Source: Candidatus Multivoradales bacterium (GTDB lineage: Bacteria; Acidobacteriota; Thermoanaerobaculia; Multivoradales; J023). From it: a stretch of 64,000 nt of DNA. Under the pieces are notes generated by a model. The model did no database searches. It was given only the letters and a program-made list of their open reading frames with translations, and was not told the DNA's origin. Below are positions 43,871 to 64,000 of the stretch, piece by piece. The position numbers and the translations under genes are program-made. The stretch covers positions 2,144,001-2,208,000 of the forward strand of contig CBDFLE010000005.1 of NCBI GenBank assembly GCA_965248925.1, in the 5' to 3' direction. The stretch's first letter is position 1. Each line of letters opens with the position of its first letter.

Positions 43871-44914
43871 TCAGTTGACCGGTTCAAGGGTGTGAGGCTG
43901 GCCCATCGCGACGATGATCTTACGTGGCCCAGCGAACGCCTCGCGGCCGTGAGAGACCAGGAAGTTGTCGACCAGCAACAAGTCGCTTTGCTGCCAATCG
44001 AAGCGCACTGCCTGACGCTCATAGAGATCCCGCACCTCCCCCATCGCCAGCGAGTCGATCGGCGAGCCGTCACCGAAGAAGGCGTTCCTCGGCAGCTCAT
44101 CTTGGTCGAATTCCTCGAGCAACGCCGCACGCACCCGCGGCTCGAGATTCGATTGGTGAAAGAGGTGCGCGTGATTGAACCACACTCGTTCACCAGTTTG
44201 CGGATGATCGGCCACAACGTGTCGGACCACCCGGGTCCGCAGACGATTCTTACCGCGCCATTCGACTTCCATCCCAGCACTTTTACAAAAGGCTTCGGCA
44301 ACCTCCCGCTCGGTAGTCTGGAACGCTTCTTGCCATGAGATATCAACCCCCTCGCCGTAGTTCCGGACATACATCACTTTCTTGCGCAGAAACTCCTGCC
44401 GCAAGTCTTTGTCAATCAAGCCAAAAATCTTGCGGTCCTCGACCACCGGCGTACGCCCGGCCCGAGTTGGCGGCTGCTGGCAGTAGAACATCAGGCGAGT
44501 CGGACAGGTCTGGGCATAGGACATCTCGTGGTGAAGGGGGATGATCTGACTGGCCGGGAACTCGGTCGAAGTATAGACCCCCTTGGCGACCGACAACCGG
44601 GGCGCTGCACGGTCCTGGTAGTCCAGGAGCTTGGGAACAAAAACCTCCGACACGGCGCGAAATGGCTCCACCCCATCCACTCCAAAGCCCCGAAACAGGA
44701 CCGCCCCCGCGGCGAGCAACTGCTCTTCGATCAGAGCCAAGTTACCGGCTGCCCAATCCCGCAGGTCAACACTGCCTTCGGCCGGCTTCGCCACTCTCAC
44801 AAAGCCGGTTTCCGGCGAGCTTCCGAAACTGACCGCCGCGGCCGAAGACAGGCGAACTGATTTCCGCTGCCGCCGACCCGGTAGGGAGGATGACCGACGA
44901 TTCATCTTCTTCAT
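43871..44914 (-). CDS. SyrP-like TauD/TfdA Fe(II)/2-oxoglutarate dioxygenase
   Basis: GAVLFRGF, YTSTE, LHHE, WFNHAHLFH, DNFLVSHGR. Confidence 0.92.
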   Translation of the reverse strand: MKKMNRRSSSLPGRRQRKSVRLSSAAAVSFGSSPETGFVRVAKPAEGSVDLRDWAAGNLALIEEQLLAAGAVLFRGFGVDGVEPFRAVSEVFVPKLLDYQDRAAPRLSVAKGVYTSTEFPASQIIPLHHEMSYAQTCPTRLMFYCQQPPTRAGRTPVVEDRKIFGLIDKDLRQEFLRKKVMYVRNYGEGVDISWQEAFQTTEREVAEAFCKSAGMEVEWRGKNRLRTRVVRHVVADHPQTGERVWFNHAHLFHQSNLEPRVRAALLEEFDQDELPRNAFFGDGSPIDSLAMGEVRDLYERQAVRFDWQQSDLLLVDNFLVSHGREAFAGPRKIIVAMGQPHTLEPVN

Positions 44915-44963
44915 GATCTCAAAGGCCCCTCGGGCCACGATCCGAACCGCAAACGGATCGCTC

Positions 44964-46034
44964 TTAGTTGGAATTCGGAGTTTCGGTCCTCGCGGTGACA
45001 TCCCGCCAGGCAATCGGAACAGCCATGGCGACCACGATCTTGCGAGGACCCGAGAAAGCAGCTCGACCATGGGCGGCAAGCATGTTGTCCAGCATCAAGA
45101 TGTCGCCTTGCTGCCAGGGAAACTCGACCGTTTCAGCGGCGTAGGCCGCACGTAGTTCGTCGAGGACCGCCGGTTCGATATCTGCGCCGTCTCCGTAGTA
45201 GGTATTGTTCGGCAAGTCTTCCTGCGCAAACCCCGACAACAGAGCTTCGCGGATGCTGGCCTCGAGAGTGCTGAGGTGAAAGAACGTGATGTGGTTGAAC
45301 CAGGTAAGCTCGCCGCTGAGCGGATGCCGCGCTAGAGCCGGTCGCACCTGCGCCGTCCGCAGCCTCCCCTCTGGCAGCCATTGGTACTCAATCTGGCTGC
45401 GCTCACAATAGCCCTCCAACTGACGCCGATCAGAGGTCTGAAAGGCCTCCTGCCAGGTCAGACCGAATCTGCCGTTGAAGTTTCTTACGTAACGATAGCC
45501 GCGATCACGGAATGTCTGGACCACCGCCGGATCGAGTCTGCGTAGCACAGCTCGAGAGTCAGCGATTGGCGTCACGCCTCCCTGCGCCGGCGCGGTTACG
45601 CAATGGAAAGCAATCCTGTTCGGAAAGACCAGATTATATGACTGCTCATTGTGTAGGTAGATCCGCTGGTCTTGCGGTTGGTCGGTCGAGGTGTAGATGC
45701 GGCCTCCGACCTTGGAACGAGGGGAAGAACGCTCAGTATATTCGAGCGCTTCACCACAAGACTGGGTGATGAAGTCCTGGAACTCCGCGACCGACCGGAC
45801 ATTGAAGCCACGGAACAGGATGCCGGCATAGCGAGTCAGCTTGGATTGCAGATCGGTTCGATGTTCGGCCGCCCATTCGATCAAGCTGAGATCGGCCACC
45901 GCGGGCTCGATAACCAACGGCAGGCCAGAGGAATTACCAAGGAACCGCTCTTTGACGAGTTCGCCCTCAGTCAAAGTTACGGTCTTCCTCGCTCTTCGCG
46001 AAATAGAACCTGCCATTACTGAACTACGTTTCAT
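44964..46034 (-). CDS. Second SyrP-like TauD/TfdA dioxygenase
   Basis: GILFRGF, RSSPRS, YTSTD, LHNE, WFNH, DNMLAAHGR. Confidence 0.92.
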   Translation of the reverse strand: MKRSSVMAGSISRRARKTVTLTEGELVKERFLGNSSGLPLVIEPAVADLSLIEWAAEHRTDLQSKLTRYAGILFRGFNVRSVAEFQDFITQSCGEALEYTERSSPRSKVGGRIYTSTDQPQDQRIYLHNEQSYNLVFPNRIAFHCVTAPAQGGVTPIADSRAVLRRLDPAVVQTFRDRGYRYVRNFNGRFGLTWQEAFQTSDRRQLEGYCERSQIEYQWLPEGRLRTAQVRPALARHPLSGELTWFNHITFFHLSTLEASIREALLSGFAQEDLPNNTYYGDGADIEPAVLDELRAAYAAETVEFPWQQGDILMLDNMLAAHGRAAFSGPRKIVVAMAVPIAWRDVTARTETPNSN

Positions 46035-46372
46035 GCCAACTCCTCTCCACAGTTCAAACGGTGACCAGGGCAACCCGAGAGTTTCCGGAAATCGCTGCCT
46101 CAGAGTAATAACTTGAAGAGGAAGATCACCGGGTCGAGCATATACCAAGACTCCCGGAATGAGCGTTTCTCGACTCCGCTCTGAGCACTGCCCCGGCTTT
46201 CGAGAGATCCTTCTGGAAGGTCAGATTCTTTCTGCTTCTCGGCACTTTCTCGAGCCGCGGCTAGAACAGCCTGAGCCCCTCCCCGACCTACTCCGCCTGA
46301 TACACTGAAAACGAAGCGTACTCGCCACAGATTGACCCTTTAGCCAACGACGATTGCCACTGTGGAATCATC

Positions 46373-48827: not shown

Positions 48828-49442
48828 TCAGGCTTCGATCTGCTCGAGGACCCGGCGTAGTTCTGCTTCCTCACCGATCAGCTGACGCTCGGCCGCAGCG
48901 CGAATGGCGGCGATTTGCTCCGCCGCCCAATCGTGGGTCATCAACTCGGTGAAGTAGATCCGTTTGACCCAGGGTCTCTGCAACTGCTGAATCTCTTCAA
49001 GCACTCCCTCGAGGCCGTGCAGGTCGAGCAGTCGCTCAACCCGCCGCTCGACTCCCAAGCCAGTGCGGCGAATCACCAGCGGCAAATGCTCAGTCAACCA
49101 GCGCTCAGCGGCCGCGGCGGCTAGGGGTTGGTCGTCGAGGGTCACAGCGCGTTGCGGAACTCCGCCAGCCGAGGCCCGATATTCACACCGCACCGTGCCG
49201 CCCTCGCCCGCCTGCCGAATGATCAGATAGCTGCCGGCGGCAAGATGGGCGACGTCGCCATCGTCGTCCGCAAAGATGATCTCACCCAGGGCCTCGACTT
49301 TGTAGAGCGAGCCACTGCCATGGTCTCCCCAATTGTAGATCTCAGCCACCGAACTGTCGGCGACGATCTCCCCACCTCCCGCAGCGCAGAGAGAGGCCAA
49401 GCCAAACATCGCGATCAATACTGAAGTCCATTTCATTTCCAA
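48828..49442 (-). CDS. Secreted hypothetical protein coupled to the NRPS
   Basis: Signal peptide; start overlaps the NRPS stop; GEI.F.DD..DV..L..GSYL and WL...LP.VIRRTGLG.E.RV pattern. Confidence 0.75.
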   Translation of the reverse strand: MEMKWTSVLIAMFGLASLCAAGGGEIVADSSVAEIYNWGDHGSGSLYKVEALGEIIFADDDGDVAHLAAGSYLIIRQAGEGGTVRCEYRASAGGVPQRAVTLDDQPLAAAAAERWLTEHLPLVIRRTGLGVERRVERLLDLHGLEGVLEEIQQLQRPWVKRIYFTELMTHDWAAEQIAAIRAAAERQLIGEEAELRRVLEQIEA

Positions 49443-52400
49443 TCCTCCGAAGTTGATGAGGTCAGCGGGTCGAAGCTGAGCAACTGCCGTAGTTTCAGAG
49501 CCAAGTCTGCCAATTGTGGTGGTCGCAGCATCGAGTGGTGGGTTCCTGCCACATCCCGCACTGTCAACCTAGCGGCCAAAGACCGCCAATTTGCTGCCGG
49601 ATCTGCCATTCGGCCTGGCCGATCGCTGGCCCTGAACAGGTTCACGGTACCAGAGTAGGGACCCGGTCTATAGCTTTCGAGAGCTTTGATGTTGCGCCGG
49701 AAGATAGAGAATAGGCGACCGCCGAGACGGGGGCCAATCTCTGCCGGTATCTGACCCGAGGCGACCAGACGGACGATCAACTCGGCAACTTTGACCTCAG
49801 TGATCGAACCGGTCGGCAGATCCAGGCCGTCGACATCGAGACTCTCACCAGCCAACCCCAACAGGTCGCTGACAAACAACCGCAACAAGGTAGCGTCGTC
49901 CACCAGCGGCCGGGAATCGGCAGAGGTCTCCACAAAGCTGTCCAGCAGAGCGAGGAACTCCACTTGCCGCCCTTGCTGTTGCAGCTGGCGAGCCATCTCG
50001 AAGGCCACCACTCCACCCATCGACCAACCTGCCAGTCGGTACGGGCCGCCAGGTTGCACTGTCTCGAGAGATGCCAGATAGGACGCCGCCATGGCTGACA
50101 CGCTGCTCGGCTGCGCTGCCACCACGCCTTCTACCACTCGCAAGCCGTAGCTCGGCTGCCCAGGGAGCGCCGCGGCCAGGTCGAGATAGCAAAACACGGT
50201 ACCGCCGATCGGGTGCACCCAGAAGATGGGCGGCCCGGTGCCGTCGCGATGCAAGCGCACCAATGGCGAACCACTGACCGGCTGCTCGGGCGCGGTCACC
50301 AACGTCGCTAGCAGAGCGACCGTGGGATGTTCGAACAGGGCCGCCAGTGGCACTTCCACGCCAAGCTCCCGGTCGATCATCGCCAACAGGCGCACCGCGA
50401 GCAATGAATGGCCACCGAGTTCGAAGAAGCTTTGCTCGACACCGACCGTCGGGATCTGCAACAGCTCTTCAAAGAGACCGACCAAACAGCGCTCGAGGGC
50501 GCTCCGTGGAGCGCCGTAAGTCGCGCTAGAGACCAGCTCCGGCTCGGGCAGCGCGGCACGGTCGAGCTTGCCGTTGGGGGTCAGTGGCAACTCTTCCAGC
50601 TGGGTCAATGCGGCAGGGACCATGAAATCCGGCAACCGAGCTGCCAGCCGATCCCGCAACTCGGCGATGGCCAGCCGCGAAGGGTCGGCGGATTGATCCG
50701 CGGCCGCTACCACGTAAGCGTAGATCCGTCGGCCGAGCACCTCGTGGTCGCGCACCACGGCGACCGCCTGCGAGACCTGCTCCGCCGCTTCCAACAGCGC
50801 CTCGATCTCCCCCAGCTCGATGCGGAAGCCACGGATCTTGACCTGATGATCGATCCGGCCAAGGAAGTCGAGCTCACCCTCCGCCCGGTAACGCACCAAG
50901 TCGCCAGTGCGATACATCCGCTCACCGGCTTGCCCGCCCTGGGGTACCGGCACAAAGCTCGCGGCGGTCAACGCCGGCCGGTGGAGATACCCCCTGGCCA
51001 GGCCCAGACCTTCGATACACAGCTCACCCGGCACTCCGACCGGCTGTCGTTCGAGCTGGCGATCGAGCACGCTCAGGTGGTAGTTGGCCAGCGGTCGGCC
51101 GATCGGGGGTAGACGGCCGGGCTCGAAGCGCACCTTCGCCCAGCTGGCGTTGATCGTCGCCTCGGTCGGACCGTAGAGGTTGAACAGCTGCCAGCCTCCT
51201 GGAATCGGCCCCGGCAAGCGCAGACGATCGCCACCAGCGAGCAGCATTCGTAGGCTTCCGGAATCAGGCCACGGATCATCGAGCAACACCTCCATGATCG
51301 CGGTCGGCAGATCTGCCACGGTGATGCGCTCGGCCAGCAACCACCGCTGCAAGTCAGCTGGCGACAGGCGCAGGGCTTCCGGAACGATGTGCAGACAGGC
51401 GCCATGGCACAGACTGCCCCAGATCTCTCCCGCCGCCACGTCGAAGGCCACCCCGGCAGCTTGCGCGATGTGCTCTCCCGGGGCAAAGCCGAGGTCTTCG
51501 CCGCACCATCCCACCAGGTTGGCGAGGCTGCGCAGAGTGACGCCTACTCCCTTGGGCACGCCGGTCGAGCCCGAGGTGTAGATCACATAGGCCAGATTCT
51601 CCGGCTCCCGACCGGCGATCGGCAAGCGATCACCGTCGCCACCGCCAGCGCCGGCGTCGGCGAGCGGCCAGGTGAGGACCGAGGCCGGCAAGCGCTCCGC
51701 CAAGTCCGGCGATGCCAGGACGATGCGGACCGGGCTATCCGCGAGGATGAAAGCCACTCGCTGGTCCGGAGTCGACGGATCGATCGGCAGATAGGCACCG
51801 CCGGCATAGAGCACCGCCAGCGCGCCCACCACCATCTCTCGCGACCGTTCGACGTAGAGCCCCACGACCTGTTCGAGATCGACCCCGGCGGTCTGCAGCC
51901 GGGTGGCCAAGGCGATGGCCCGGCGATGCAGCTCGGCATAGCTCAGCTGCCCCTGCTGATCCACTACCGCCACCGCGGCGGGGGTGCGCTCGGCCCAAGC
52001 CGCCACCCGTTGCTGGAGCGGTATCTCATCTTCGACCCGAACGACCGCGCTGCCATTCCACTCCTGCGCCAGCTGGTGCCTCTCCGCGGCGGCGAGCAAG
52101 GGCAGGCTGCCCGTAGCATTGTCCGGCTGCTCGGCGATGCACTCCGCCAACCGCTCAAAGTGGCTCAGGAAGCGGGCCGCGGTGGTCGGGTCAAACAGGC
52201 CGCGGTCATATTCGAGATCGCAGATCAGCTCCGGACCACGCTCCTCGACCTGTAAGGTCCAGTCGAATTTCGCCAGCCCATTGCTCAGCGGCACCGGCTG
52301 GGAGCTGAGCACAGCGTTAGAGCCGGCTTCTCCATCACCGACCGGGGGCTCGCCCGAGCCCCCCTCGGCAACATAGGTAAACATTGCCTGGAACAAAGGA

Positions 52401-55400
52401 GTCCGCCCCAGGGCACGCTCGGGTTGGAGTTCCTGAACCAGCATCTCGAAGGGCAGGTCCTGATGGTCGTGGGCCTCGAGAACCTGGTCGCGGACGCGCC
52501 CGAGGAGAGTCGCAAACGACTCCGAGGAACGCCACCGAGCACGCAGCACCAAGGTGTTGACAAAGAAGCCGATCAGTTCCTCGATCTCGCGCCGATGGCG
52601 ACCCGCGATCAGCGAGCCAACGCTGACATCCAGGCGCCCGCCATAGCGGCCGAGAAGGAGTTGAAAGGTGGCCAGGAGAACGATGAAGGGGGTTGAGCGA
52701 TAGCGCCGCGAGAGCTGGTGAATAGCACTCGACAGCGCCGCCGGCAGAACCCGGCGACGAGCGGCGGCCAACGACTGGTGCAAGCCCTGCCGGGGCCGGT
52801 CCACCGGCAGCTGCAGCTGCCTCGGCGCCCCGGCGAGGCGCTCTCGCCAATAGGCCAGCTCCGCCTCGAGCCGGCTGCCGGTAAGCCAATCGCGCTGCCA
52901 GGCGGCATAGTCCACGTATTGCACAGGCAGGGCTGGCAACCCCCGCGGCGAGCCATCCACGGCCTGCTGATAGAGCACCTCAAGCTCGCGCCGCAGAAGA
53001 TCCACTGACCAACCGTCGGAGACGATGTGATGCATGTTGACCAGCAGCTGATGACTCTCCGGTTCGAGGCGCAGAAGCAGCGCCCGGAAAACCGGCCCCG
53101 ACCCCAGGTCGAAAGGCAGCGCGGCCTCGAACCGAACCCGCCACTGCCCCTCCTGCTGGCGCTGCTCCGCTGCCAACCCACTGAGGTCGACCAGCGGCAA
53201 GACCGCGGCAGGATCTTCGGCAAGGCGTAGCTCGGGCTCACCGTCGATCTCCGGGAAGCGACTGCGCAGAACGTCATGGCGGCGCTGAACCTCGCGGTAG
53301 GCGAATGTCAGCCCGGCGACCGAGACCGGCCCCTCGAGCCGCACCGCAAAAGGCATGTTGTACGCCGCACTGCCGGGCTGGAGACGGTCCAGGAACCACA
53401 GTCGGCGTTGCGCGAAGGACAGCTCGGGAGTGCCGCCCAACCGCTCGATCGGGGCCAGGGAGGCAGCGTCCGCGGTTTGCGCGGCGAGCACCTCAGCGCT
53501 CAACCCGGCCAAGACCGGCTGCTCGAAAACCGCCCGGATCGGCAGCTCGACAGCAAAGCTCTGGCGGATCCGGACCACCAGCTGAGTGGCCAGCAGAGAG
53601 TGACCGCCGAGGGCGAAGAAATCGGCATCGCGACCGATCTCGTCGATGCCGAGCAGGCCTGACCAGAACTCCGCCATACGCATTTCTGGCAAGCTCCGGG
53701 GAGCACTGTAGCGCCCCACCTGCTGCTCCGGCTCGGGCAGCGCGGCACGGTCGAGCTTGCCGTTGGGGGTCAGTGGCAACTCTTCCAGCTGGGTCAATGC
53801 GGCAGGGACCATGAAATCCGGCAACCGAGCTGCCAGCCGATCTCGCAACTCGGCGATGGCCAGCCGCGAAGGGTCGGCGGATTGATCCGCGGCCGCTACC
53901 ACGTAAGCGTAGATCCGTCGGCCGAGCACCTCGTGGTCGCGCACCACGGCGACCGCCTGCGAGACCTGCTCCGCCGCTTCCAACAGCGCCTCGATCTCCC
54001 CCAGCTCGATGCGGAAGCCACGGATCTTGACCTGATGATCGATCCGGCCAAGGAAGTCGAGCTCACCCTCCGCCCGGTAACGCACCAAGTCGCCAGTGCG
54101 ATACATCCGCTCACCGGCTTGCCCGCCCTGGGGTACCGGCACAAAGCTCGCGGCGGTCAACGCCGGCCGGTGGAGATACCCCCTGGCCAGGCCCAGACCT
54201 TCGATACACAGCTCACCCGGCACTCCGACCGGCTGTCGTTCGAGCTGGCGATCGAGCACGCTCAGGTGGTAGTTGGCCAGCGGTCGGCCGATCGGGGGTA
54301 GACGGCCGGGCTCGAAGCGCACCTTCGCCCAGCTGGCGTTGATCGTCGCCTCGGTCGGACCGTAGAGGTTGAACAGCTGCCAGCCTCCTGGAATCGGCCC
54401 CGGCAAGCGCAGACGATCGCCACCAGCGAGCAGCATTCGTAGGCTTCCGGAATCAGGCCACGGATCATCGAGCAACACCTCCATGATCGCGGTCGGCAGA
54501 TCTGCCACGGTGATGCGCTCGGCCAGCAACCACCGCTGCAAGTCAGCTGGCGACAGGCGCAGGGCTTCCGGAACGATGTGCAGACAGGCGCCATGGCACA
54601 GACTGCCCCAGATCTCTCCCGCCGCCACGTCGAAGGCCACCCCGGCAGCTTGCGCGATGTGCTCTCCCGGGGCAAAGCCGAGGTCTTCGCCGCACCATCC
54701 CACCAGGTTGGCGAGGCTGCGCAGAGTGACGCCTACTCCCTTGGGCACGCCGGTCGAGCCCGAGGTGTAGATCACATAGGCCAGATTCTCCGGCTCCCGA
54801 CCGGCGATCGGCAAGCGATCACCGTCGCCACCGCCAGCGCCGGCGTCGGCGAGCGGCCAGGTGAGGACCGAGGCCGGCAAGCGCTCCGCCAAGTCCGGCG
54901 ATGCCAGGACGATGCGGACCGGGCTATCCGCGAGGATGAAAGCCACTCGCTGGTCCGGAGTCGACGGATCGATCGGCAGATAGGCACCGCCGGCATAGAG
55001 CACCGCCAGCGCGCCCACCACCATCTCTCGCGACCGTTCGACGTAGAGCCCCACGACCTGTTCGAGATCGACCCCGGCGGTCTGCAGCCGGGTGGCCAAG
55101 GCGATGGCCCGGCGATGCAGCTCGGCATAGCTCAGCTGCCCCTGCTGATCCACTACCGCCACCGCGGCGGGGGTGCGCTCGGCCCAAGCCGCCACCCGTT
55201 GCTGGAGCGGTATCTCATCTTCGACCCGAACGACCGCGCTGCCATTCCACTCCTGCGCCAGCTGGTGCCTCTCCGCGGCGGCGAGCAAGGGCAGGCTGCC
55301 CGTAGCATTGTCCGGCTGCTCGGCGATGCACTCCGCCAACCGCTCAAAGTGGCTCAGGAAGCGGGCCGCGGTGGTCGGGTCAAACAGGCCGCGGTCATAT

Positions 55401-58400
55401 TCGAGATCGCAGATCAGCTCCGGACCACGCTCCTCGACCTGTAAGGTCCAGTCGAATTTCGCCAGCCCATTGCTCAGCGGCACCGGCTGGGAGCTGAGCA
55501 CAGCGTTAGAGCCGGCTTCTCCATCACCGACCGGGGGCTCGCCCGAGCCCCCCTCGGCAACATAGGTAAACATTGCCTGGAACAAAGGAGTCCGCCCCAG
55601 GGCACGCTCGGGTTGGAGTTCCTGAACCAGCATCTCGAAGGGCAGGTCCTGATGGTCGTGGGCCTCGAGAACCTGGTCGCGGACGCGCCCGAGGAGAGTC
55701 GCAAACGACTCCGAGGAACGCCACCGAGCACGCAGCACCAAGGTGTTGACAAAGAAGCCGATCAGTTCCTCGATCTCGCGCCGATGGCGACCCGCGATCA
55801 GCGAGCCAACGCTGACATCCAGGCGCCCGCCATAGCGGCCGAGAAGGAGTTGAAAGGTGGCCAGGAGAACGATGAAGGGGGTTGAGCGATAGCGCCGCGA
55901 GAGCTGGTGAATAGCACTCGACAGCGCCGCCGGCAGAACCCGGCGACGAGCGGCGGCCAACGACTGGTGCAAGCCCTGCCGGGGCCGGTCCACCGGCAGC
56001 TGCAGCTGCCTCGGCGCCCCGGCGAGGCGCTCTCGCCAATAGGCCAGCTCCGCCTCGAGCCGGCTGCCGGTAAGCCAATCGCGCTGCCAGGCGGCATAGT
56101 CCACGTATTGCACAGGCAGGGCTGGCAACCCCCGCGGCGAGCCATCCACGGCCTGCTGATAGAGCACCTCAAGCTCGCGCCGCAGAAGATCCACTGACCA
56201 ACCGTCGGAGACGATGTGATGCATGTTGACCAGCAGCTGATGACTCTCCGGTTCGAGGCGCAGAAGCAGCGCCCGGAAAACCGGCCCCGACCCCAGGTCG
56301 AAAGGCAGCGCGGCCTCGAACCGAACCCGCCACTGCCCCTCCTGCTGGCGCTGCTCCGCTGCCAACCCACTGAGGTCGACCAGCGGCAAGACCGCGGCAG
56401 GATCTTCGGCAAGGCGTAGCTCGGGCTCACCGTCGATCTCCGGGAAGCGACTGCGCAGAACGTCATGGCGGCGCTGAACCTCGCGGTAGGCGAATGTCAG
56501 CCCGGCGACCGAGACCGGCCCCTCGAGCCGCACCGCAAAAGGCATGTTGTACGCCGCACTGCCGGGCTGGAGACGGTCCAGGAACCACAGTCGGCGTTGC
56601 GCGAAGGACAGCTCGGGAGTGCCGCCCAACCGCTCGATCGGGGCCAGGGAGGCAGCGTCCGCGGTTTGCGCGGCGAGCACCTCAGCGCTCAACCCGGCCA
56701 AGACCGGCTGCTCGAAAACCGCCCGGATCGGCAGCTCGACAGCAAAGCTCTGGCGGATCCGGACCACCAGCTGAGTGGCCAGCAGAGAGTGACCGCCGAG
56801 GGCGAAGAAATCGGCATCGCGACCGATCTCGTCGATGCCGAGCAGGCCTGACCAGAACTCCGCCATACGCATTTCTGGCAAGCTCCGGGGAGCACTGTAG
56901 CGCCCCACCTGCTGCTCCGGCTCGGGCAGCGCGGCACGGTCGAGCTTGCCGTTGGGCAGCAACGGCAGAGCTTCGAGTTGCATGAAAACCGCCGGCACCA
57001 TATAGCCTGGCAAGTGTTCCGTCGCGAATTGTCGCAGCCGGTCCCCGTCAACCGCTCCTTCTGTGGTCACCCAGGCAACTAGCTGGGCGCCGGTGGCGCC
57101 CTCACCGCGAACCGCCACCACCGCTTCGCGCACCTGCGGACTCTGCACTAGGCAGGCCTCGATATCACCCAACTCGATCCGATAGCCCCGCAGCTTGACC
57201 TGGCGATCGTCGCGACCGAGGAAGTCCAACCGGCCATCGGTGCGGCGGCGGGCCAAGTCGCCGGCGCGGTAAAGCCGCGCCCCTGGATGCTCAGAAAACG
57301 GGTCGGGCACAAAACACTCGGCGCTTAGGGCCGGCGCGCCAAAGTAGCCGCGAGTCACCCCATCTCCACCGATGTACAACTCGCCTTCGAGGCCGATGGC
57401 CTGGACTTCTAGGGTGCGATCGAGCACCCGCAAAGAAGTGTTGTCGATCGCCCGGCCGATCGACAGACTGCCCGCTACTTCAGCAATTCTCTCAATGCTC
57501 GACCAGACGGTGGTCTCGGTCGGTCCGTAGAGATTCCACAAACTACCCACCCGGGGCAATAGGCGTCGAGCCAAATCGGCAGACAGGGCCTCGCCTCCAC
57601 ACAGCGCCGACAGCCTCGGCGAGCCCTCCCAACCTGACTCCAGGAGCAACCGCCAAGTGGCCGGGGTGGCTTGCATGGTGGTCACGCCCCGACCCCGCAA
57701 TAACTCCTGCAAGCGAGCACCATCGGCTGCGTCGGCGCTCTCGACCAGCTCTACTTGGGCGCCGACCATCAAGGGCAGAAACAGCTCCAGCACGGCGATG
57801 TCGAACGACAGCGTGGTTACCGCCAGCAACGTGTCGCCGGCCGTCAAGCCTGGCCGACGGCGCATCGAAGTCAAGAAATTGAGCAGTGCACCATGGGAAA
57901 CTTGCACCCCTTTCGGCCGGCCAGTAGAACCGGAGGTGTAGATCACATAGGCCAAGCTCTGCGCCGCCTTGGGCGGCAGCATCACCGCGTCACTCGCCGC
58001 CCTGGGAATCGAGTCGTCGAGCAGCCAGTGGCGAATCTCGACCGCCGGAAGGCGCTCCACGCAAGCCCGTTCGGTGACTATCAAACTCGGCCGAGCGTTG
58101 GCGACCACCTGCGCCAGGCGGTGGGTCGGGAACCCAGGATCGAGGGGCACATAGGCCGCCCCGGTGTCGAGAATCGCCCACAGGGCCACCAACATGTCGA
58201 CCGAGCGCTCGACGCACAGGCCCACTCGCTGCTCGGGCCGGACACCCAACTCCAGCAGCTCGCCGGCCAGTCCCAAAGAGCGGGCCCGCAGCTCGCCATA
58301 GGTCAGCATCCGGCCGGCACAGCGTACCGCCACCGCCTCCGGGGTGCGCTCGGCTTGCGCGGCCAGCAGTTCCGGCAGCGAGGGAGCGTGCCTGCGATCG

Positions 58401-61400
58401 ACCGCCCGAGCAACCCACTCCACCACCAACTGGTGCCGCTCGGCGCGGGCCAGCAGGGGCAGTTCATCCAGCGAGCGCCGAGGATCGTCGAGAGCCCCCC
58501 CGAGGAAACGCTGGTAATAAGCCAGCCAACGCCGCGGGGTCACCGCATCGTACAGATCGGTGTTGTATTCCCAGCCATAGCTGACCTCGTTCGGCTGCTC
58601 GCTGAGGCCAAAGGTCAGATCGAATTTAGCGGTCGTCGAGCTGCTGCTGCTGGTTTGCACCGTTTGTTGGCCGGCGTCGCCACCTCCCTCGGTGGCGCCC
58701 GCTGTCGACTCGGCGGAGTAGAGCATCATCACCTGGAACAGCGGTGAATGCGCCAGGCTGCGCTCGGGTTGCAACTCCTCGACCAGCTTCTCGAACGGCA
58801 GGTCCTGGTGATCCTGAGCCCCCAGAACGCTTTCCCGCACCTGCCCGACCAGTGACTCGAAGCTCAGCCCAGGAGCCAACCTGGCCCGCACCACCAGGGT
58901 GTTGACGAACAGGCCGATCAACGGCTCGAGTTCTTCGCGGCGCCGCCCGGCAACCGGTAGACCAACACTCAGATCGCGCTGGCCACTCAAGCGGTAGAGC
59001 AACGCCAGCAACGAGGCCAAGCCCACCATCAGTCGGCTGGCGCCGTGCTGGCGGGCACAGCGAGCCAGCTCATCCGCAGCGCGGCGATCCATCACCTTGG
59101 CGATACCGGCACCACGAAAAGTCTGCACCGCCGGGCGCGGCCGATCGGTCGGCAACTCGATCTGCGCTGGTGCTCCGTCCAGGGCCCGGCGCCAATAGTC
59201 CAACTGCCGATCGAGAATCTCACCGTCCAACCAGCGCCGCTGCCAGATGGCGAAATCGCCGTAACTCACCGGCAGCTCGGCCAACGGCGATGGGCGACCG
59301 GCGGAAAAAGCTTGGTAGAGGTCGCCCAGCTCGCTCTCCAGAATGCCGATCGACCAGCCGTCGGCGACGATGTGGTGCAGGGTGACTAACAGTCGATGAC
59401 GATCTTCAGCCAAGCGGAGCAGGGTCCAGCGCGTCACCGGCCCGCGCTCCAGCTCGAACGGCCGGCGAGCCTCCGCCGCCGCCCATCGAGCAGCGGCTAG
59501 GGATCTGTCGCTGCCCGACAAGGCACTCAAATCGAGCTGCCCCAAGACCGCTTTAGGAAGCGCTTCGACAACCACCCGCGGCCGGCCCTCCGAGCTACCT
59601 GGGAAACGGCTGCGCAAGACTTCGTGACGGAGCAGTATCGCGGTGATCGCCCGCCCCAGGGCAGCCGGGTTGGCCGGCCCGTCGAGCAGTACCGAAAAGG
59701 GCATGTTGTAGGCCGCGCTGGCGGGCTCGAAACGGTGCAAGAACCACAGCCGCTCTTGAGCGAAGGAGGGCGGGATCTCCTCTCCCGCGGCAGCCGGCAG
59801 CAGCTCCGGCACGGCAGGTACCACGGGCCGCCCCACGGCGCCCGCCGCACCATCACACTGGGCGCGACGGATCGCCTCGGCCAGGCCGGCGACCGTCGGA
59901 TATTCGAATAGCAGCGCCAGAGGAAGCTCCTCGTTAAGCTCACGACGAATGCGGTTGAGCAGCCGCACTGCCACCAACGAATGGCCGCCGAGCTCAAAGA
60001 AATCCTGCAACACGCCGATCGGCCGCTGGTCGAGAACCTCCTCGAAAAGTGCCACCAAACGACCCTCGAGGGCGTCTCGGGGAGCGACGGAGTCCTCTCC
60101 GCCGATCATCTGCGGCTCTGGCAAGGCGCCGCGATCGAGCTTGCCGACCGCGGTCAGGGGCAGCGCATCGAGCCGGGTCAGGGCGGCCGGCACCATGTAG
60201 CTGGGCAGGCTTTCGAGCAAGCTTCGCCGCAGTCCCTCGACCGAGATCGACTCGCTCGCGACCGCGCTCGCCACCACGTAAGCCAAAACCTGCTTGCCCA
60301 AGGTGTCATGGTGGCGGACAACGACCACCGCCTCGGCGATTCCGGGCAGCGCGAGCAAGCGCGCTTCGATCTCCTCCAGCTCGATGCGGAAGCCACGAAC
60401 CTTGACTTGACGATCACTGCGACCGACGAACTCGAGATCACCGCTGGGCAAACGACGAACCAGGTCACCACTGCGGTACAAACGCTGGCCGGGGACATCG
60501 GCATGGGGATCGGGCACGAAACGAGCCGCGGTCAGCCCAGGCCGCTTCCAATAGCCTCGGGCCAGACCCACGCCGCCGATCAGCAGTTCACCCGCCACCC
60601 CCAAAGCAACCGGCTCCCGCGGATCGAGCACCCGCAGAGAGGTGGAGCTGATCGGCCGACCTATAGGCACCGTGCTCGTCGCTTGCTCGGCGACCCGGAG
60701 CACCGGATACCAGGAGGCGAAGGTGGTGCATTCAGTAGGACCGTAGACATGCAACAGGCGGAGCCGCTCAGCGCTCGCTCGCACCCTCCTCACCGCCCGC
60801 GGGTCGCAAGCCTCGCCGCCGAACAACAAGGTAGACAAGCCGGCGAAGGCCCGTGGTAGCTCACGGGCTACCAAATTGAAAACTGCCGTGGTCAAGAACA
60901 GATGTTCGACTCGGCGCCGCTCCAGAACCCCACCCAGCTGCTCGGCGGAGGCCAAGCTCCGCGGCTCGATTCCGACCACTTCACCGCCATTCAACAACGC
61001 TCCCCAAATCTCGAATGTCGCAGCATCGAAGGACGCCGTCGAAGCCTGGGCGAGGCGTTCGGCCGGCCCAACCTGGAGGTAATTGGAGTCCCGGACCAGA
61101 CGCAGAATCGCGGCGTGAGATATCGCCACCCCTTTCGGCCGTCCGGTCGAGCCGGAAGTGAAGATGATGTAGGCCAGATTCGCCGGCTCGACCTGGGCGG
61201 CCAGGGTTGCGCCTTGCTGTGCCTCGAGCCAGGGCCAATCGCGGTCCAGACAGATGACTTCGAGGTCGTCGCTCGGTAACCGCTGCAACAGCCGCTGCTC
61301 GGTGACCAACGCTGCCACCCCGGTGTCTTGCAGCATGAAACGCAGGCGCTCCTCGGGATAGGTCGGGTCGAGGGGTACGTAGAGGCCGCCGGCCTTGAGA

Positions 61401-64000
61401 ATCCCCACCATGCCGACCAGCAGCTCCAGCGAGCGCTCGACGCTGAGGCCAACCCGGTCTTCCACCCCGATGCCGCGCCGCAGCAGCCCGGCAGCGAGCA
61501 GCGAAGACCGCCGGTCCAATTCACCATAGGTCAGGAACTCGCCACCGTAGCTGGCCGCTACCGCAGCTGGCCGCAGATTGACCTGACGCAGGAACAGGGC
61601 TCCGACCGACTCCCAACCAGACCCCGTGCTCGACCCTTCGTCGACCTCTAGGAGCAGTTGGTGTCGCTCGCCGCGGGTGAGCCAGGGGAGGCCGGCCAGG
61701 GGCCGTGCCGGGCTACTGACCGCCGCCTCAAGCAGGGTTTCGAAATGGCCCAGGAACCGCGCCACGGTCGCCGCATCAAAGAGGTCCTTGGCGTATTGCA
61801 GGGTACAACTCAGCGAGTCCTCACTGGCTTCTACCTGGAAAGTCCAATCGAACTTGGCCAAACCGCTGTCCAGGGTCGCCATCCGCCCGCGCCGGGTGAG
61901 GTCCAGCCCAGACCCGCCGGCCGGTCCGCCCGCGAGCTCGTAGGAGTCGCGGGCACGATAGGTGAACATTGTTTGGAATAGGGGCGTCCGCCCCAGCACG
62001 CGCTCCGGCCGCAGTTCCTGCACCAAGCGGTCGAAGGGCAGATCCTGATGTTGGTGAGCTTCCAGCACCGCTTCGCGGACTCGCTGGAACAGTTGCTCGA
62101 AGCTCTCCGCCACCGACCATCGGCTGCGCAACACCAGGGTGTTGACGAAGAAACCGATCAGCGGCTGTAGCTCCTGCCGCTGGCGGCCGGCGATCGGCGT
62201 GCCAACCGAGATATCGAGCTGGCCACTATGCCTGCCGAGCAGCAGCTGGAAAACCGCTAGAGTGAGGATGAAAGGTGTCGACTGGCCGCCGCGAGCAAAC
62301 TCCAAGGCCGCGGCCGCCAAATCTGCGGGCAACCGGCGACGGACCACCGCCGCTGCCGCACGCCGCAGGCCCCGCCGGGGTCGGTCGGTGGGCAAGCCGA
62401 GCAGGTCGGGGGCTTCAGCGAGGCGCTGGCGCCAGAAATCGACCTCGGACTCCAGCAGCGGCCCGGACAACCAGTCTTGCTGCCAGGCAGCATAGTCAGC
62501 GTATTGGATTGGCAGCTCGGCCAGAGCTGCTAATCGACCGTCCACGGCGCTGCTGTAGAGTTCCTCCAGCTCCCGCTGCAGCAGCTCCATCGACCAGCCG
62601 TCGGAGACGATGTGATGCATGCTCACCAGCAATCGGTGAACAGACTGCGACAAGCTCAGCACTGTCCAGCGCAGCACCGGCCCAGCCGTCAGGTCGAAGG
62701 GTTGGCGCGCCTCCTGGGCCGCCCAACGAGCCGCCTCTCGCCGGCCATCTGTGGAGGCCAGGCCAGCAAGATCGACCAGCGGCACCGGATAGGCTTCTGG
62801 CAACGGCACGATCTCTACGGTCGGCCGGTCGGCGACTTCTGGATAGCGACTGCGCAGCACCTGGTGGCGGCTCAGCACCTGGTGGAAAGCCCTACCCAGG
62901 ATCGGCCGATCTAGATTGCCGTCCAGATCCACCGCGAAAGACATGTTGTAGATCGGGCTACCCGGATCCAAGCGATCCAGCAGCCACATGCGCCGCTGAG
63001 CGAACGACAGGGTGGGTCCATGCTGGTCGTCAACAGCCGGCACCAAAGGCGGTAGGCTGGCGGCTGAAGGCCCCTCGATAGCGGTGATCGTGGCCGCCAG
63101 TCCGGCCGCTGTCGGCTGCTCGAAGAGCGCGGCTAGCGGCAGCTCGGTCCCGAGCTCGAAATTGATCCGGTTGATCAGTCGCACCGCCACCAACGAGTGC
63201 CCACCAAGGTCGAAGAAGCTTTGCTGGACGCCGATCGGGCGAACTGCAAACAGCTCTTCGAAAAGCTCCACCAGGCGCCTCTCCAAGGCGTTGCGCGGCG
63301 CCACTAGGTCCACCCCGACCTCGTCTTCGACACTCGGCAGCGCGGCCCGATCGAGCTTGCCATTCGGAGTCAGCGGCAACTCGTCGAGCTGGGTCAAAGC
63401 AGCGGGGATCATGTAGCCCGGTAGCCGCTCTTCCAACCAGCTCTGCAGCTCGCCAAGAGCCAGGGACGATGGGTCGAGAGCCTGATCCAAGGCGGCTATC
63501 ACGTAGGCGTAGATCCGTTGGCCGAGAACCTCGTGGTCGCGCACGATGGCGACCGCCTGCGAGACCTCGTCGAGCTCTTCCAGCAGCGCCTCGATCTCCC
63601 CCAGTTCGATGCGAAAGCCACGAATCTTGACCTGATGATCGAGCCGGCCGAGGTATTCAAGCTCGCCTCCCGAACCTCGCCGAACCAGATCACCAGTGCG
63701 ATAGAGGCGTTCTCCAGCCTGGCCAGCGAACGGATCGGGGACGAAGCGCGCAGCGGTGGCCGCCGGGTGGCACCAATACCCCCGGGCCAGCCCGTCGCCG
63801 CCGATCGACAGCTGGCCAGCAACGCCGAGCACCACCGGTCGCCCTACCGCATCGAGGACATGCAGAGAGGTGTTGGCGATGGGCCGCCCGATCGGCACTG
63901 TCACAGCGCTAGCGGTCGGCGCCTGCAACAGCTTGAAGCAAGCGGCGAAGGTCGTGCATTCGGTGGGTCCGTAGCCGTTCACCAAGCGCACCTCCGGCAA
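49433..64000 (-). CDS. Terminal NRPS (5' end outside window): (A)-T-C-A-T-C-A-T-C-A-T-C-A-T-TE
   Basis: Four C domains with HHIV[SA]DGWS, four full A domains (YTSGSTG/FTSGSTG, YGPTE, GKLDR) plus one partial, five GGHSL carrier domains, TE with GWSMGG. Confidence 0.98.
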   Translation of the reverse strand: MPEVRLVNGYGPTECTTFAACFKLLQAPTASAVTVPIGRPIANTSLHVLDAVGRPVVLGVAGQLSIGGDGLARGYWCHPAATAARFVPDPFAGQAGERLYRTGDLVRRGSGGELEYLGRLDHQVKIRGFRIELGEIEALLEELDEVSQAVAIVRDHEVLGQRIYAYVIAALDQALDPSSLALGELQSWLEERLPGYMIPAALTQLDELPLTPNGKLDRAALPSVEDEVGVDLVAPRNALERRLVELFEELFAVRPIGVQQSFFDLGGHSLVAVRLINRINFELGTELPLAALFEQPTAAGLAATITAIEGPSAASLPPLVPAVDDQHGPTLSFAQRRMWLLDRLDPGSPIYNMSFAVDLDGNLDRPILGRAFHQVLSRHQVLRSRYPEVADRPTVEIVPLPEAYPVPLVDLAGLASTDGRREAARWAAQEARQPFDLTAGPVLRWTVLSLSQSVHRLLVSMHHIVSDGWSMELLQRELEELYSSAVDGRLAALAELPIQYADYAAWQQDWLSGPLLESEVDFWRQRLAEAPDLLGLPTDRPRRGLRRAAAAVVRRRLPADLAAAALEFARGGQSTPFILTLAVFQLLLGRHSGQLDISVGTPIAGRQRQELQPLIGFFVNTLVLRSRWSVAESFEQLFQRVREAVLEAHQHQDLPFDRLVQELRPERVLGRTPLFQTMFTYRARDSYELAGGPAGGSGLDLTRRGRMATLDSGLAKFDWTFQVEASEDSLSCTLQYAKDLFDAATVARFLGHFETLLEAAVSSPARPLAGLPWLTRGERHQLLLEVDEGSSTGSGWESVGALFLRQVNLRPAAVAASYGGEFLTYGELDRRSSLLAAGLLRRGIGVEDRVGLSVERSLELLVGMVGILKAGGLYVPLDPTYPEERLRFMLQDTGVAALVTEQRLLQRLPSDDLEVICLDRDWPWLEAQQGATLAAQVEPANLAYIIFTSGSTGRPKGVAISHAAILRLVRDSNYLQVGPAERLAQASTASFDAATFEIWGALLNGGEVVGIEPRSLASAEQLGGVLERRRVEHLFLTTAVFNLVARELPRAFAGLSTLLFGGEACDPRAVRRVRASAERLRLLHVYGPTECTTFASWYPVLRVAEQATSTVPIGRPISSTSLRVLDPREPVALGVAGELLIGGVGLARGYWKRPGLTAARFVPDPHADVPGQRLYRSGDLVRRLPSGDLEFVGRSDRQVKVRGFRIELEEIEARLLALPGIAEAVVVVRHHDTLGKQVLAYVVASAVASESISVEGLRRSLLESLPSYMVPAALTRLDALPLTAVGKLDRGALPEPQMIGGEDSVAPRDALEGRLVALFEEVLDQRPIGVLQDFFELGGHSLVAVRLLNRIRRELNEELPLALLFEYPTVAGLAEAIRRAQCDGAAGAVGRPVVPAVPELLPAAAGEEIPPSFAQERLWFLHRFEPASAAYNMPFSVLLDGPANPAALGRAITAILLRHEVLRSRFPGSSEGRPRVVVEALPKAVLGQLDLSALSGSDRSLAAARWAAAEARRPFELERGPVTRWTLLRLAEDRHRLLVTLHHIVADGWSIGILESELGDLYQAFSAGRPSPLAELPVSYGDFAIWQRRWLDGEILDRQLDYWRRALDGAPAQIELPTDRPRPAVQTFRGAGIAKVMDRRAADELARCARQHGASRLMVGLASLLALLYRLSGQRDLSVGLPVAGRRREELEPLIGLFVNTLVVRARLAPGLSFESLVGQVRESVLGAQDHQDLPFEKLVEELQPERSLAHSPLFQVMMLYSAESTAGATEGGGDAGQQTVQTSSSSSTTAKFDLTFGLSEQPNEVSYGWEYNTDLYDAVTPRRWLAYYQRFLGGALDDPRRSLDELPLLARAERHQLVVEWVARAVDRRHAPSLPELLAAQAERTPEAVAVRCAGRMLTYGELRARSLGLAGELLELGVRPEQRVGLCVERSVDMLVALWAILDTGAAYVPLDPGFPTHRLAQVVANARPSLIVTERACVERLPAVEIRHWLLDDSIPRAASDAVMLPPKAAQSLAYVIYTSGSTGRPKGVQVSHGALLNFLTSMRRRPGLTAGDTLLAVTTLSFDIAVLELFLPLMVGAQVELVESADAADGARLQELLRGRGVTTMQATPATWRLLLESGWEGSPRLSALCGGEALSADLARRLLPRVGSLWNLYGPTETTVWSSIERIAEVAGSLSIGRAIDNTSLRVLDRTLEVQAIGLEGELYIGGDGVTRGYFGAPALSAECFVPDPFSEHPGARLYRAGDLARRRTDGRLDFLGRDDRQVKLRGYRIELGDIEACLVQSPQVREAVVAVRGEGATGAQLVAWVTTEGAVDGDRLRQFATEHLPGYMVPAVFMQLEALPLLPNGKLDRAALPEPEQQVGRYSAPRSLPEMRMAEFWSGLLGIDEIGRDADFFALGGHSLLATQLVVRIRQSFAVELPIRAVFEQPVLAGLSAEVLAAQTADAASLAPIERLGGTPELSFAQRRLWFLDRLQPGSAAYNMPFAVRLEGPVSVAGLTFAYREVQRRHDVLRSRFPEIDGEPELRLAEDPAAVLPLVDLSGLAAEQRQQEGQWRVRFEAALPFDLGSGPVFRALLLRLEPESHQLLVNMHHIVSDGWSVDLLRRELEVLYQQAVDGSPRGLPALPVQYVDYAAWQRDWLTGSRLEAELAYWRERLAGAPRQLQLPVDRPRQGLHQSLAAARRRVLPAALSSAIHQLSRRYRSTPFIVLLATFQLLLGRYGGRLDVSVGSLIAGRHRREIEELIGFFVNTLVLRARWRSSESFATLLGRVRDQVLEAHDHQDLPFEMLVQELQPERALGRTPLFQAMFTYVAEGGSGEPPVGDGEAGSNAVLSSQPVPLSNGLAKFDWTLQVEERGPELICDLEYDRGLFDPTTAARFLSHFERLAECIAEQPDNATGSLPLLAAAERHQLAQEWNGSAVVRVEDEIPLQQRVAAWAERTPAAVAVVDQQGQLSYAELHRRAIALATRLQTAGVDLEQVVGLYVERSREMVVGALAVLYAGGAYLPIDPSTPDQRVAFILADSPVRIVLASPDLAERLPASVLTWPLADAGAGGGDGDRLPIAGREPENLAYVIYTSGSTGVPKGVGVTLRSLANLVGWCGEDLGFAPGEHIAQAAGVAFDVAAGEIWGSLCHGACLHIVPEALRLSPADLQRWLLAERITVADLPTAIMEVLLDDPWPDSGSLRMLLAGGDRLRLPGPIPGGWQLFNLYGPTEATINASWAKVRFEPGRLPPIGRPLANYHLSVLDRQLERQPVGVPGELCIEGLGLARGYLHRPALTAASFVPVPQGGQAGERMYRTGDLVRYRAEGELDFLGRIDHQVKIRGFRIELGEIEALLEAAEQVSQAVAVVRDHEVLGRRIYAYVVAAADQSADPSRLAIAELRDRLAARLPDFMVPAALTQLEELPLTPNGKLDRAALPEPEQQVGRYSAPRSLPEMRMAEFWSGLLGIDEIGRDADFFALGGHSLLATQLVVRIRQSFAVELPIRAVFEQPVLAGLSAEVLAAQTADAASLAPIERLGGTPELSFAQRRLWFLDRLQPGSAAYNMPFAVRLEGPVSVAGLTFAYREVQRRHDVLRSRFPEIDGEPELRLAEDPAAVLPLVDLSGLAAEQRQQEGQWRVRFEAALPFDLGSGPVFRALLLRLEPESHQLLVNMHHIVSDGWSVDLLRRELEVLYQQAVDGSPRGLPALPVQYVDYAAWQRDWLTGSRLEAELAYWRERLAGAPRQLQLPVDRPRQGLHQSLAAARRRVLPAALSSAIHQLSRRYRSTPFIVLLATFQLLLGRYGGRLDVSVGSLIAGRHRREIEELIGFFVNTLVLRARWRSSESFATLLGRVRDQVLEAHDHQDLPFEMLVQELQPERALGRTPLFQAMFTYVAEGGSGEPPVGDGEAGSNAVLSSQPVPLSNGLAKFDWTLQVEERGPELICDLEYDRGLFDPTTAARFLSHFERLAECIAEQPDNATGSLPLLAAAERHQLAQEWNGSAVVRVEDEIPLQQRVAAWAERTPAAVAVVDQQGQLSYAELHRRAIALATRLQTAGVDLEQVVGLYVERSREMVVGALAVLYAGGAYLPIDPSTPDQRVAFILADSPVRIVLASPDLAERLPASVLTWPLADAGAGGGDGDRLPIAGREPENLAYVIYTSGSTGVPKGVGVTLRSLANLVGWCGEDLGFAPGEHIAQAAGVAFDVAAGEIWGSLCHGACLHIVPEALRLSPADLQRWLLAERITVADLPTAIMEVLLDDPWPDSGSLRMLLAGGDRLRLPGPIPGGWQLFNLYGPTEATINASWAKVRFEPGRLPPIGRPLANYHLSVLDRQLERQPVGVPGELCIEGLGLARGYLHRPALTAASFVPVPQGGQAGERMYRTGDLVRYRAEGELDFLGRIDHQVKIRGFRIELGEIEALLEAAEQVSQAVAVVRDHEVLGRRIYAYVVAAADQSADPSRLAIAELRDRLAARLPDFMVPAALTQLEELPLTPNGKLDRAALPEPELVSSATYGAPRSALERCLVGLFEELLQIPTVGVEQSFFELGGHSLLAVRLLAMIDRELGVEVPLAALFEHPTVALLATLVTAPEQPVSGSPLVRLHRDGTGPPIFWVHPIGGTVFCYLDLAAALPGQPSYGLRVVEGVVAAQPSSVSAMAASYLASLETVQPGGPYRLAGWSMGGVVAFEMARQLQQQGRQVEFLALLDSFVETSADSRPLVDDATLLRLFVSDLLGLAGESLDVDGLDLPTGSITEVKVAELIVRLVASGQIPAEIGPRLGGRLFSIFRRNIKALESYRPGPYSGTVNLFRASDRPGRMADPAANWRSLAARLTVRDVAGTHHSMLRPPQLADLALKLRQLLSFDPLTSSTSEDWK
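50536..56956. repeat. Near-identical tandem duplication, 3189-bp period (T-C-A unit x2)
   Basis: Sequence and all shadow ORFs recur at +3189 (e.g. 50707/53896). One difference noticed: 50654 C vs 53843 T, synonymous Arg. Confidence 0.97.

Follow-up and report, generated by a model that had tools for sequence, protein, structure and literature searches.

A probable, very recent tandem duplication of a T-C-A unit at the A10-LPxP motif in a nonribosomal peptide synthetase of a Candidatus Multivoradales bacterium

Architecture of the synthetase gene

The window analysed here is a stretch of 64,000 nucleotides (nt) from the genome of a Candidatus Multivoradales bacterium (assembly GCA_965248925.1; genome G000, 7.98 Mb in six contigs, numbered with the prefix C), corresponding to C5:2144001-2208000, and our subject is a tandem repeat within a nonribosomal peptide synthetase (NRPS) gene. 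The gene lies on the minus strand, an orientation added here to an earlier note made on this DNA from its letters and reading frames. The NRPS frame (C5:2193433-2226546) is open throughout its 11,037 codons from stop to stop; its stop codon is at 49433-49435 of the window, and it extends past the window's right end. The 3′ part within the window (49433-64000) was delimited from the frame, the motif map and Pfam. Core-motif mapping places ten condensation-adenylation-carrier (C-A-T) modules and a thioesterase (TE) in the gene, and Pfam reports PF00668 (Condensation), PF00501 (AMP-binding), PF13193 (AMP-binding_C), PF00550 (PP-binding) and PF00975 (Thioesterase). The gene therefore has the domains of a modular (type I) NRPS, namely condensation, adenylation, carrier and terminal thioesterase domains, in C-A-T order.

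In the reading direction, the end of the gene runs A2-R-T*-C-A3-R-T*-C-A3-R-Tf-TE, where A2 and A3 are A domains, R is a 43-bp patch, T* is the carrier of the repeated unit and Tf is the terminal carrier. All of these features are on the minus strand. First, the A domain of module 8 (A2, pocket code DILQLGLVWK) occupies 56957-58459, as placed by the motif map, the pocket reading and the comparison of A2 with A3, and ends in the first copy of R (56914-56956). It is followed by the upstream T-C-A copy of 3189 bp (53725-56913; pocket code DVGDLGLINK). Shifting the Pfam coordinates of the other copy by 3189 places its PP-binding domain at about 56684-56860, Condensation at about 55259-56614, AMP-binding at about 54173-55192 and AMP-binding_C at about 53756-53998. 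The second copy of R (53725-53767) is the new junction, at which the end of A3 is joined to T*. The downstream T-C-A copy (50536-53724) has the same pocket code, and Pfam places PP-binding at 53495-53671, Condensation at 52070-53425, AMP-binding at 50984-52003 and AMP-binding_C at 50567-50809. The third copy of R (50536-50578) forms the end of the last A domain, after which the terminal carrier begins. Lastly, the segment 49436-50535 contains Tf (PP-binding, 50297-50485) and the thioesterase (49514-50230), as identified by Pfam and motifs.

The tandem repeat and its junction

The repeat was found by a direct-repeat search, followed by a base-by-base comparison at a shift of 3189 nt. Positions 50536-53767 equal positions 53725-56956 over 3232 nt, with a period of 3189 nt and one mismatch. 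This sole difference between the copies, C at 50654 and T at 53843, falls on the third base of an Arg codon (CGG versus CGA) and is synonymous, and the two copies encode identical protein. A self-comparison of the whole genome returns the same pair (3232 nt, 99.969% identity, one mismatch, no gap). Both comparisons agree with the earlier note, which had described two in-frame copies of 1063 codons separated by one synonymous difference. Beyond the repeat the identity drops sharply, to 20-42% per 50-nt window on the left and to 24-70% in five windows on the right.

Within one unit of 1063 residues, Pfam locates PP-binding at 19-77, Condensation at 101-552, AMP-binding at 575-914 and AMP-binding_C at 973-1053, so the repeated unit has the order T-C-A. 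The core motifs HHxxxDG, SGSTGxPKG, GRxDxQVKIRG, NGKLDR and GGHSL are intact in both copies, and together with the Pfam order they support the previous description of the unit as T-C-A and not C-A-T. The unit carrier T* and the terminal carrier Tf clearly differ in sequence.

Both ends of the repeat and its junction carry R, which is identical at 50536, 53725 and 56914, the three sites at which a 43-bp stretch had already been noticed. On the coding (minus) strand, R encodes PNGKLDRAALPEPE, which comprises the A10 motif (NGKLDR) plus LPxP. R also accounts exactly for the excess of the identical stretch (3232 nt) over the period (3189 nt).

A2 and A3 are diverged, with 11-23 of 30 nt matching per window in the 600 nt before R, followed by 43 of 43 in R. 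A survey of 54 A10-like sites across the genome (1431 pairs) gave nine pairs matching at 43/43, while the next best reached 39/43. Three of these nine pairs are the R copies, two lie in a 7911-bp repeat and one in an older three-unit array (both described below), and the remaining three fall in a further repeated element, which occurs on C3, C5 and C6. Since no pair outside a repeat exceeds 39/43 and A2 and A3 are diverged, protein conservation does not explain why R is identical in both.

A probable crossover within the 43-bp patch

We consider it highly probable that the repeat reflects a genuine duplication in tandem of a T-C-A unit, that it is of very recent date and that a crossover in the 43-bp A10-LPxP patch produced it. 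The copies stand head to tail, and the recombined homology is present at both ends and at the junction, as in a tandem duplication. Because R occupies these three positions and the overlap is exactly R, the arrangement has the footprint of a crossover within R. The exact repeat and the presence of R at the junction also bear out the earlier note's proposal of a very recent duplication with its junction in the A10 motif and A-T linker.

The ancestral gene would have ended in ...A2(Gly-type)-R-T*-C-A3-R-Tf-TE, in which two A domains of otherwise divergent sequence already shared the same R at their ends. Unequal homologous crossing-over between these copies of R, either on misaligned sister chromosomes or within one replicating molecule, would then yield ...A2-R-T*-C-A3-R-T*-C-A3-R-Tf-TE, which has one extra in-frame unit of 1063 codons. 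The change would thus be a gain at this locus rather than a loss elsewhere. The middle R is not a hybrid, and all three copies of R are identical, which means that A2 and A3 must already have shared an identical R when the crossover took place. The minimal homology for RecA-type recombination in E. coli is about 25-30 bp, and the 43 identical bp of R exceed this minimum. A former three-copy array in which A2 is a swapped-in domain was also considered and rejected, as the C domain before A2 is only about 61% identical to the C domain of the unit.

Other module arrays in the genome and gene conversion

Two other synthetase genes of this genome carry tandem module repeats. The first (nrpsB) lies within an open NRPS frame of 6,866 codons and has three T-C-A units of 1061, 1060 and 1061 codons (C5:1517869-1527415), which are 90-95% identical and bounded by ALPEP. 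At the end of its homology, 29 of 30 nt match in the window holding the ten codons NGKVDRKALP and 12 of 30 match in the next window; the homology therefore stops at the same spot as the junction in the 43-bp patch. Between the units, the synonymous divergence (dS) is 0.05-0.20 and the ratio of nonsynonymous to synonymous divergence (dN/dS) is 0.35-0.49, values that point to purifying selection. As this older array is open under such a ratio, T-C-A units of this kind appear able to persist. The pocket code is DVFFIGGTFK in units 1 and 3 and DAFFLGVTFK in unit 2, and identity varies along the units in the mosaic manner expected from conversion. The last A10 motif of the array reads NSKVDR instead of NGKVDR.

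The second (nrpsC) is a 7911-bp tandem duplication of A-T-C-A-T-E-C (C6:341448-349420 versus 349359-357331), which is 99.4% identical and has clustered mismatches, 52 in all. Its junction lies in a C-A linker (…PDELSMLSAAER…), which indicates that array junctions are not restricted to one site. The duplication is contained in a minus-strand frame of 19,438 codons from stop to stop (C6:338809-397122), in which NRPS motifs appear only from about codon 7200 onwards. NRPS modules have thus been duplicated at three different times in this genome (copies 99.97%, 99.4% and 90-95% identical), and two of the three arrays consist of T-C-A units ending at A10-LPxP.

The earlier note had offered unequal crossover or gene conversion as the mechanism. 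In the case of conversion, two old adjacent modules would recently have been homogenized by concerted evolution, and the peptide length would be unchanged. Conversion is common between NRPS modules according to Medema et al. (2014, PMC4256081) and Goetze et al. (2019, PMC7472662), the latter with the one-nucleotide difference of cif A4/A7, and it is at work in this genome too: the units of nrpsB are mosaic, with 30/30 tails over hundreds of nt beside windows of 17-23/30, and none of the clustered mismatches of the 7911-bp repeat falls in C6:343243-348971. However, the hallmark of conversion, a tract shorter than the module period with diverged sequence between, is present in the older arrays nrpsB and nrpsC and absent here, where the identical tract comprises the whole period plus 43 nt without a diverged remainder. 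For conversion to produce this pattern, both limits of its tract would need to fall in the same 43-bp patch, spaced by one full period, and such an event is in effect a crossover. Moreover, the carrier before both copies is identical, whereas the terminal carrier is unlike it. An identical stretch longer than the period and the lack of a diverged remainder are thus better explained by unequal crossover; of the two proposed mechanisms, crossover is retained, and conversion is, in our judgement, improbable.

Predicted consequences for the peptide

A structure match of A3 to LgrA (644 bits) was rejected as a guide to the A3 substrate, since this score is the sum of two ordinary domain matches (315 + 327) and is uninformative on specificity. 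Because of this, and because the GrsA chain (1amu) ranked too low, the pocket residues were placed by core-motif anchoring in a MAFFT alignment, using positions relative to the motifs. Applied to 23 A domains of the gene cluster, this approach yields recognisable codes of the classical Ser, Thr, Gln, Gly, Glu and Asx types, a result that speaks for its validity. The code obtained for A2, DILQLGLVWK, is one that we take to be of the glycine type. The code obtained for both A3 copies, DVGDLGLINK, is presumably nearest to the ornithine or N5-hydroxyornithine types, and we make no assignment for it.

A T-C-A unit would keep T* before C and Tf before TE, and the only new protein contact would be that of A3 with T*. 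The second C domain would have to accept a chain ending in X, the substrate of the DVGDLGLINK pocket, and not a chain ending in Gly. If the new module works, the peptide would probably end in Gly-X-X instead of Gly-X.

Copy number of the unit

Four public runs (X1-X4) contain 99% of the words sampled from the region; all of them derive from one sample, probably the one that was used for the assembly. The runs are present as short-read contigs, and depth refers here to the depth of each contig. The left flank contig, which ends at 50565, has depths of 12.8, 14, 21.4 and 6.97 in X1-X4, respectively, and the right flank contig, which starts at 56927, has depths of 9.86, 17.2, 16.5 and 2.3. Between them, the unit is collapsed into 50549-53754 (3206 nt, or split into 282 + 2954 or 297 + 2939), with depths of 25.9, 34.3, 29.8 and 12.2. 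Gaps in the contig cover of copy 2 arise only from the placement of these contigs on copy 1. A separate 43-nt contig, which is exactly R, has depths of 50, 47 and 18 in X2-X4 and no row in X1. These contig ends (50565, 50549, 53754 and 56927) match a graph with R as a shared node, and the shape of this graph alone is compatible with any copy number of at least one.

A single copy is expected to place the unit at 1× and R at 2× the flanks, and two copies are expected to place them at 2× and 3×. The ratio of unit to flank is 2.0-2.6 in X1, 2.0-2.45 in X2, 1.4-1.8 in X3, and 1.75 and 5.3 in X4, which is a thin run. The ratio of R to flank is 2.9-3.6 in X2, 2.2-2.85 in X3, and 2.6 and 7.8 in the thin X4. 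With the unit at about 2× and R at about 3×, the depth is consistent with two copies, and the contig depths favour two copies in the DNA over a false duplication in the assembly. Depth was also one of the checks that the earlier note had named as able to refute the duplication, and its outcome is on the side of two copies.

The alternative is that the organism has one unit, which the assembler wrote twice. The topology with R as a shared node is compatible with this as well, no spanning read was seen, and the single difference, which adjoins GATC, is unconfirmed. However, the collapsed unit exceeds the flanks in each of the runs (at least 1.75× in X4), and the 43-mer reaches 2.2-3.6× the flanks in X2 and X3. 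Near-identical repeats are usually collapsed, rather than expanded, by assemblers. The six-contig assembly resolves dozens of near-identical repeats of 1.6, 2.5 and 2.9 kb, and the whole-genome self-comparison returns 1589 repeat pairs of at least 500 nt at 95% identity or more; the resolved repeats fit a long-read assembly. We therefore regard the artefact as very improbable.

A further explanation is an unstable array, in which cells with one, two and perhaps three copies are mixed and the assembly represents the commonest or a single form. Two identical direct repeats of 3.2 kb are a far better RecA substrate than a 43-bp patch, and both loss and further gain of the unit would be expected from them. 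The depth ratios range from 1.4 to 2.6 among runs of one sample, in line with such a mixture, but this spread may be noise, and no contig links A2-R directly to Tf or shows another form, with the limit that contigs are blind to rare forms. We consider a mixed population possible, if somewhat unlikely.

Searches in other genomes and assessment

No orthologous cluster was found in 40 related genomes, where nucleotide identity reaches 71% at most and the best foreign match has 69% over 0.8 kb. Likewise, no orthologue was found in genome_contigs or metagenome_contigs, where the best protein identity is 47%; these best matches come from metagenome-assembled genomes of Anaerolineae and other Chloroflexota and from cyanobacteria. 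A repeat survey covered 137 foreign NRPS loci, 2.2 Mb in total (68 loci of 1.08 Mb and 69 loci of 1.14 Mb, with some contigs in both sets). No full-period NRPS module repeat of at least 90% identity was found among the 137 loci, most of which are short-read assemblies that cannot hold such repeats. Twelve shorter repeats of at least 400 nt and at least 90% identity were found in these loci, the longest being 1654 nt. As to how rare such repeats are, this survey is weak evidence.

Several points weigh against a recent duplication by crossover as we read it. First, the identity of R in A2 and A3 before the event is unexplained by the crossover model; candidates are an earlier conversion with a tract ending at the A2 body, or a conversion 'overhang' after an illegitimate first duplication. 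Secondly, with no relative found to carry the cluster, the single-copy ancestor and the direction of the change are what we infer. Thirdly, no read or contig crosses the array in the short-read contigs of the four runs, contig depth is not equivalent to copy number, all four runs come from a single sample, and the unit in X3 is only 1.4-1.8× the flanks, between the one-copy and two-copy predictions. In addition, the contigs of all four runs carry C at the variable site, and the T of copy 2 (53843) is not seen. This site is directly 3′ of a GATC on the plus strand, and either a consensus error or a popped bubble may lie behind the T; the copies may be fully identical. Finally, by analogy with surviving natural exchanges, which tend to keep the native Asub-T interface, the new pair of A3 and T* may work poorly, and the event is too young for selection to have judged this pair.

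Comparison with published systems

Baunach et al. (2021, PMC8097286) describe the A10 and LPxP motif pair as marking the start of the A-T linker. The site is called a perfect recombination point, yet it is described as unused among surviving exchanges, which tend to retain the native Asub-T interface. Although the exchanges in that data set avoid A10-LPxP, the site was used at least once in the genome studied here, if the repeat arose as we propose, and the homology of an older array ends there.

Bozhueyuek et al. (bioRxiv 10.1101/2022.12.02.518901) report that working enzymes were obtained with T-C-A units (their fusion point I) and also with a breakpoint located within T (XUT). The natural T-C-A unit in our locus resembles the unit of fusion point I, as it ends between the A and T domains. 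In contrast, the evolution-derived XUT breakpoint (sites III/IV) lies inside T at GGxS, whereas the junction here is upstream of T at A10/LPxP: it is 50 codons upstream of GGHSL and not at the FFxxGGxS carrier core. Furthermore, their units are exchanged between synthetases, while the unit here is duplicated in place. In RACE recombineering (bioRxiv 10.64898/2026.02.09.704528), the a10 motif at site S12/13 (TPNGKLDRR) is reported to be a productive fusion site with 79% success. S12/13 and the 43-bp patch share the same motif as a crossover point; however, RACE is a laboratory recombination of chosen clusters, whereas the event here appears spontaneous in a wild genome and its product is only predicted.

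In the Pseudomonas lipopeptide synthetases studied by Goetze et al. (2019), the cif A4 and A7 domains differ by one nucleotide within one cluster. Our repeat is similar in its one-nucleotide difference and in its sharp ends, which place the breakpoints within a few nucleotides. The cif event replaced an A domain, from the first A helices to mid Asub, and kept the number of modules constant, whereas a whole T-C-A unit is added in tandem here. In the syringopeptin NRPS and the mycolactone polyketide synthase, modules were duplicated and then evolved in concert, according to Medema et al. (2014). The three arrays of this genome fit their model of module duplication with likeness kept by internal recombination; their cases were deduced from trees of diverged domains, whereas the newest event here has zero or one difference and an exact junction. 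A 2026 review also states that recombination within a cluster can insert or delete whole modules. In a non-exhaustive literature search, with subscription papers outside its scope, we found no account of a tandem T-C-A duplication that is natural, near-identical and located at A10-LPxP.

Surroundings of the gene in the cluster and genome

The NRPS gene is the last of seven long minus-strand frames (C5:2193433-2295791), a cluster of roughly 100 kb with about 28 carrier-domain motifs in total by a simple motif count. Two distant modules of this cluster have a 1.4-kb stretch in common (C5:2253292-2254692 and 2283113-2284513) that is 91% identical, and four of its A domains share the pocket code DAWQFGLIDK. 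A 204-codon frame at 48828-49442 of the window (minus strand) has a 10-nt overlap that takes in the NRPS stop codon, and a Pfam search of this frame gave no match. Two adjacent genes of the TauD/TfdA dioxygenase family (43871-46148, minus strand) lie just downstream of the NRPS gene, and beyond them are ABC-transporter and MacB/FtsX-type genes. The dioxygenases probably act on the peptide as tailoring hydroxylases, and the transporters probably export it. At a distance of about 17 kb from the NRPS gene there is a DDE transposase (DDE_Tnp_1_4; 30965-32278, plus strand), which belongs to one of the many insertion sequences of the genome.

At the scale of the genome, elements of about 1.64, 2.54 and 2.90 kb occur in many copies, and repeat arrays of about 10 kb with 95-97% identity are found on C4 and at the start of C5. 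C1 opens and closes with 10.8-kb stretches that match each other at 99.9%, suggesting that it is a circular molecule whose ends overlap in the assembly.

Biological implications

Engineers dispute where NRPS modules can be cut and rejoined. In nature, such events usually come to light only after prolonged divergence, by which time the junctions have become blurred and the failures have been purged. Module duplication, T-C-A units and A10 fusion sites are already in print in the sources compared above; events of this kind have been described before, and the junction site has been both foreseen and exploited in laboratory work. What is added here is an example from nature in which the junction is exact and virtually nothing has changed since, next to an older array of the same design that has survived. 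Because the 43-bp junction is exact and followed by at most one later mutation, the raw product of recombination is visible before selection. The locus also carries a warning, as near-identical module repeats of this kind are lost in short-read assemblies.

The locus favours the view that the A10/LPxP boundary and the T-C-A unit serve as building blocks in nature. We further suggest, as a proposition that we hold at somewhat below even confidence, that crossover at A10-LPxP may be a natural and selectable route by which nonribosomal peptides are first lengthened and then diversified, with a non-native Asub-T contact being tolerated in nature. If this is true, the main reason why such events have gone unnoticed would be their collapse in short-read assemblies.

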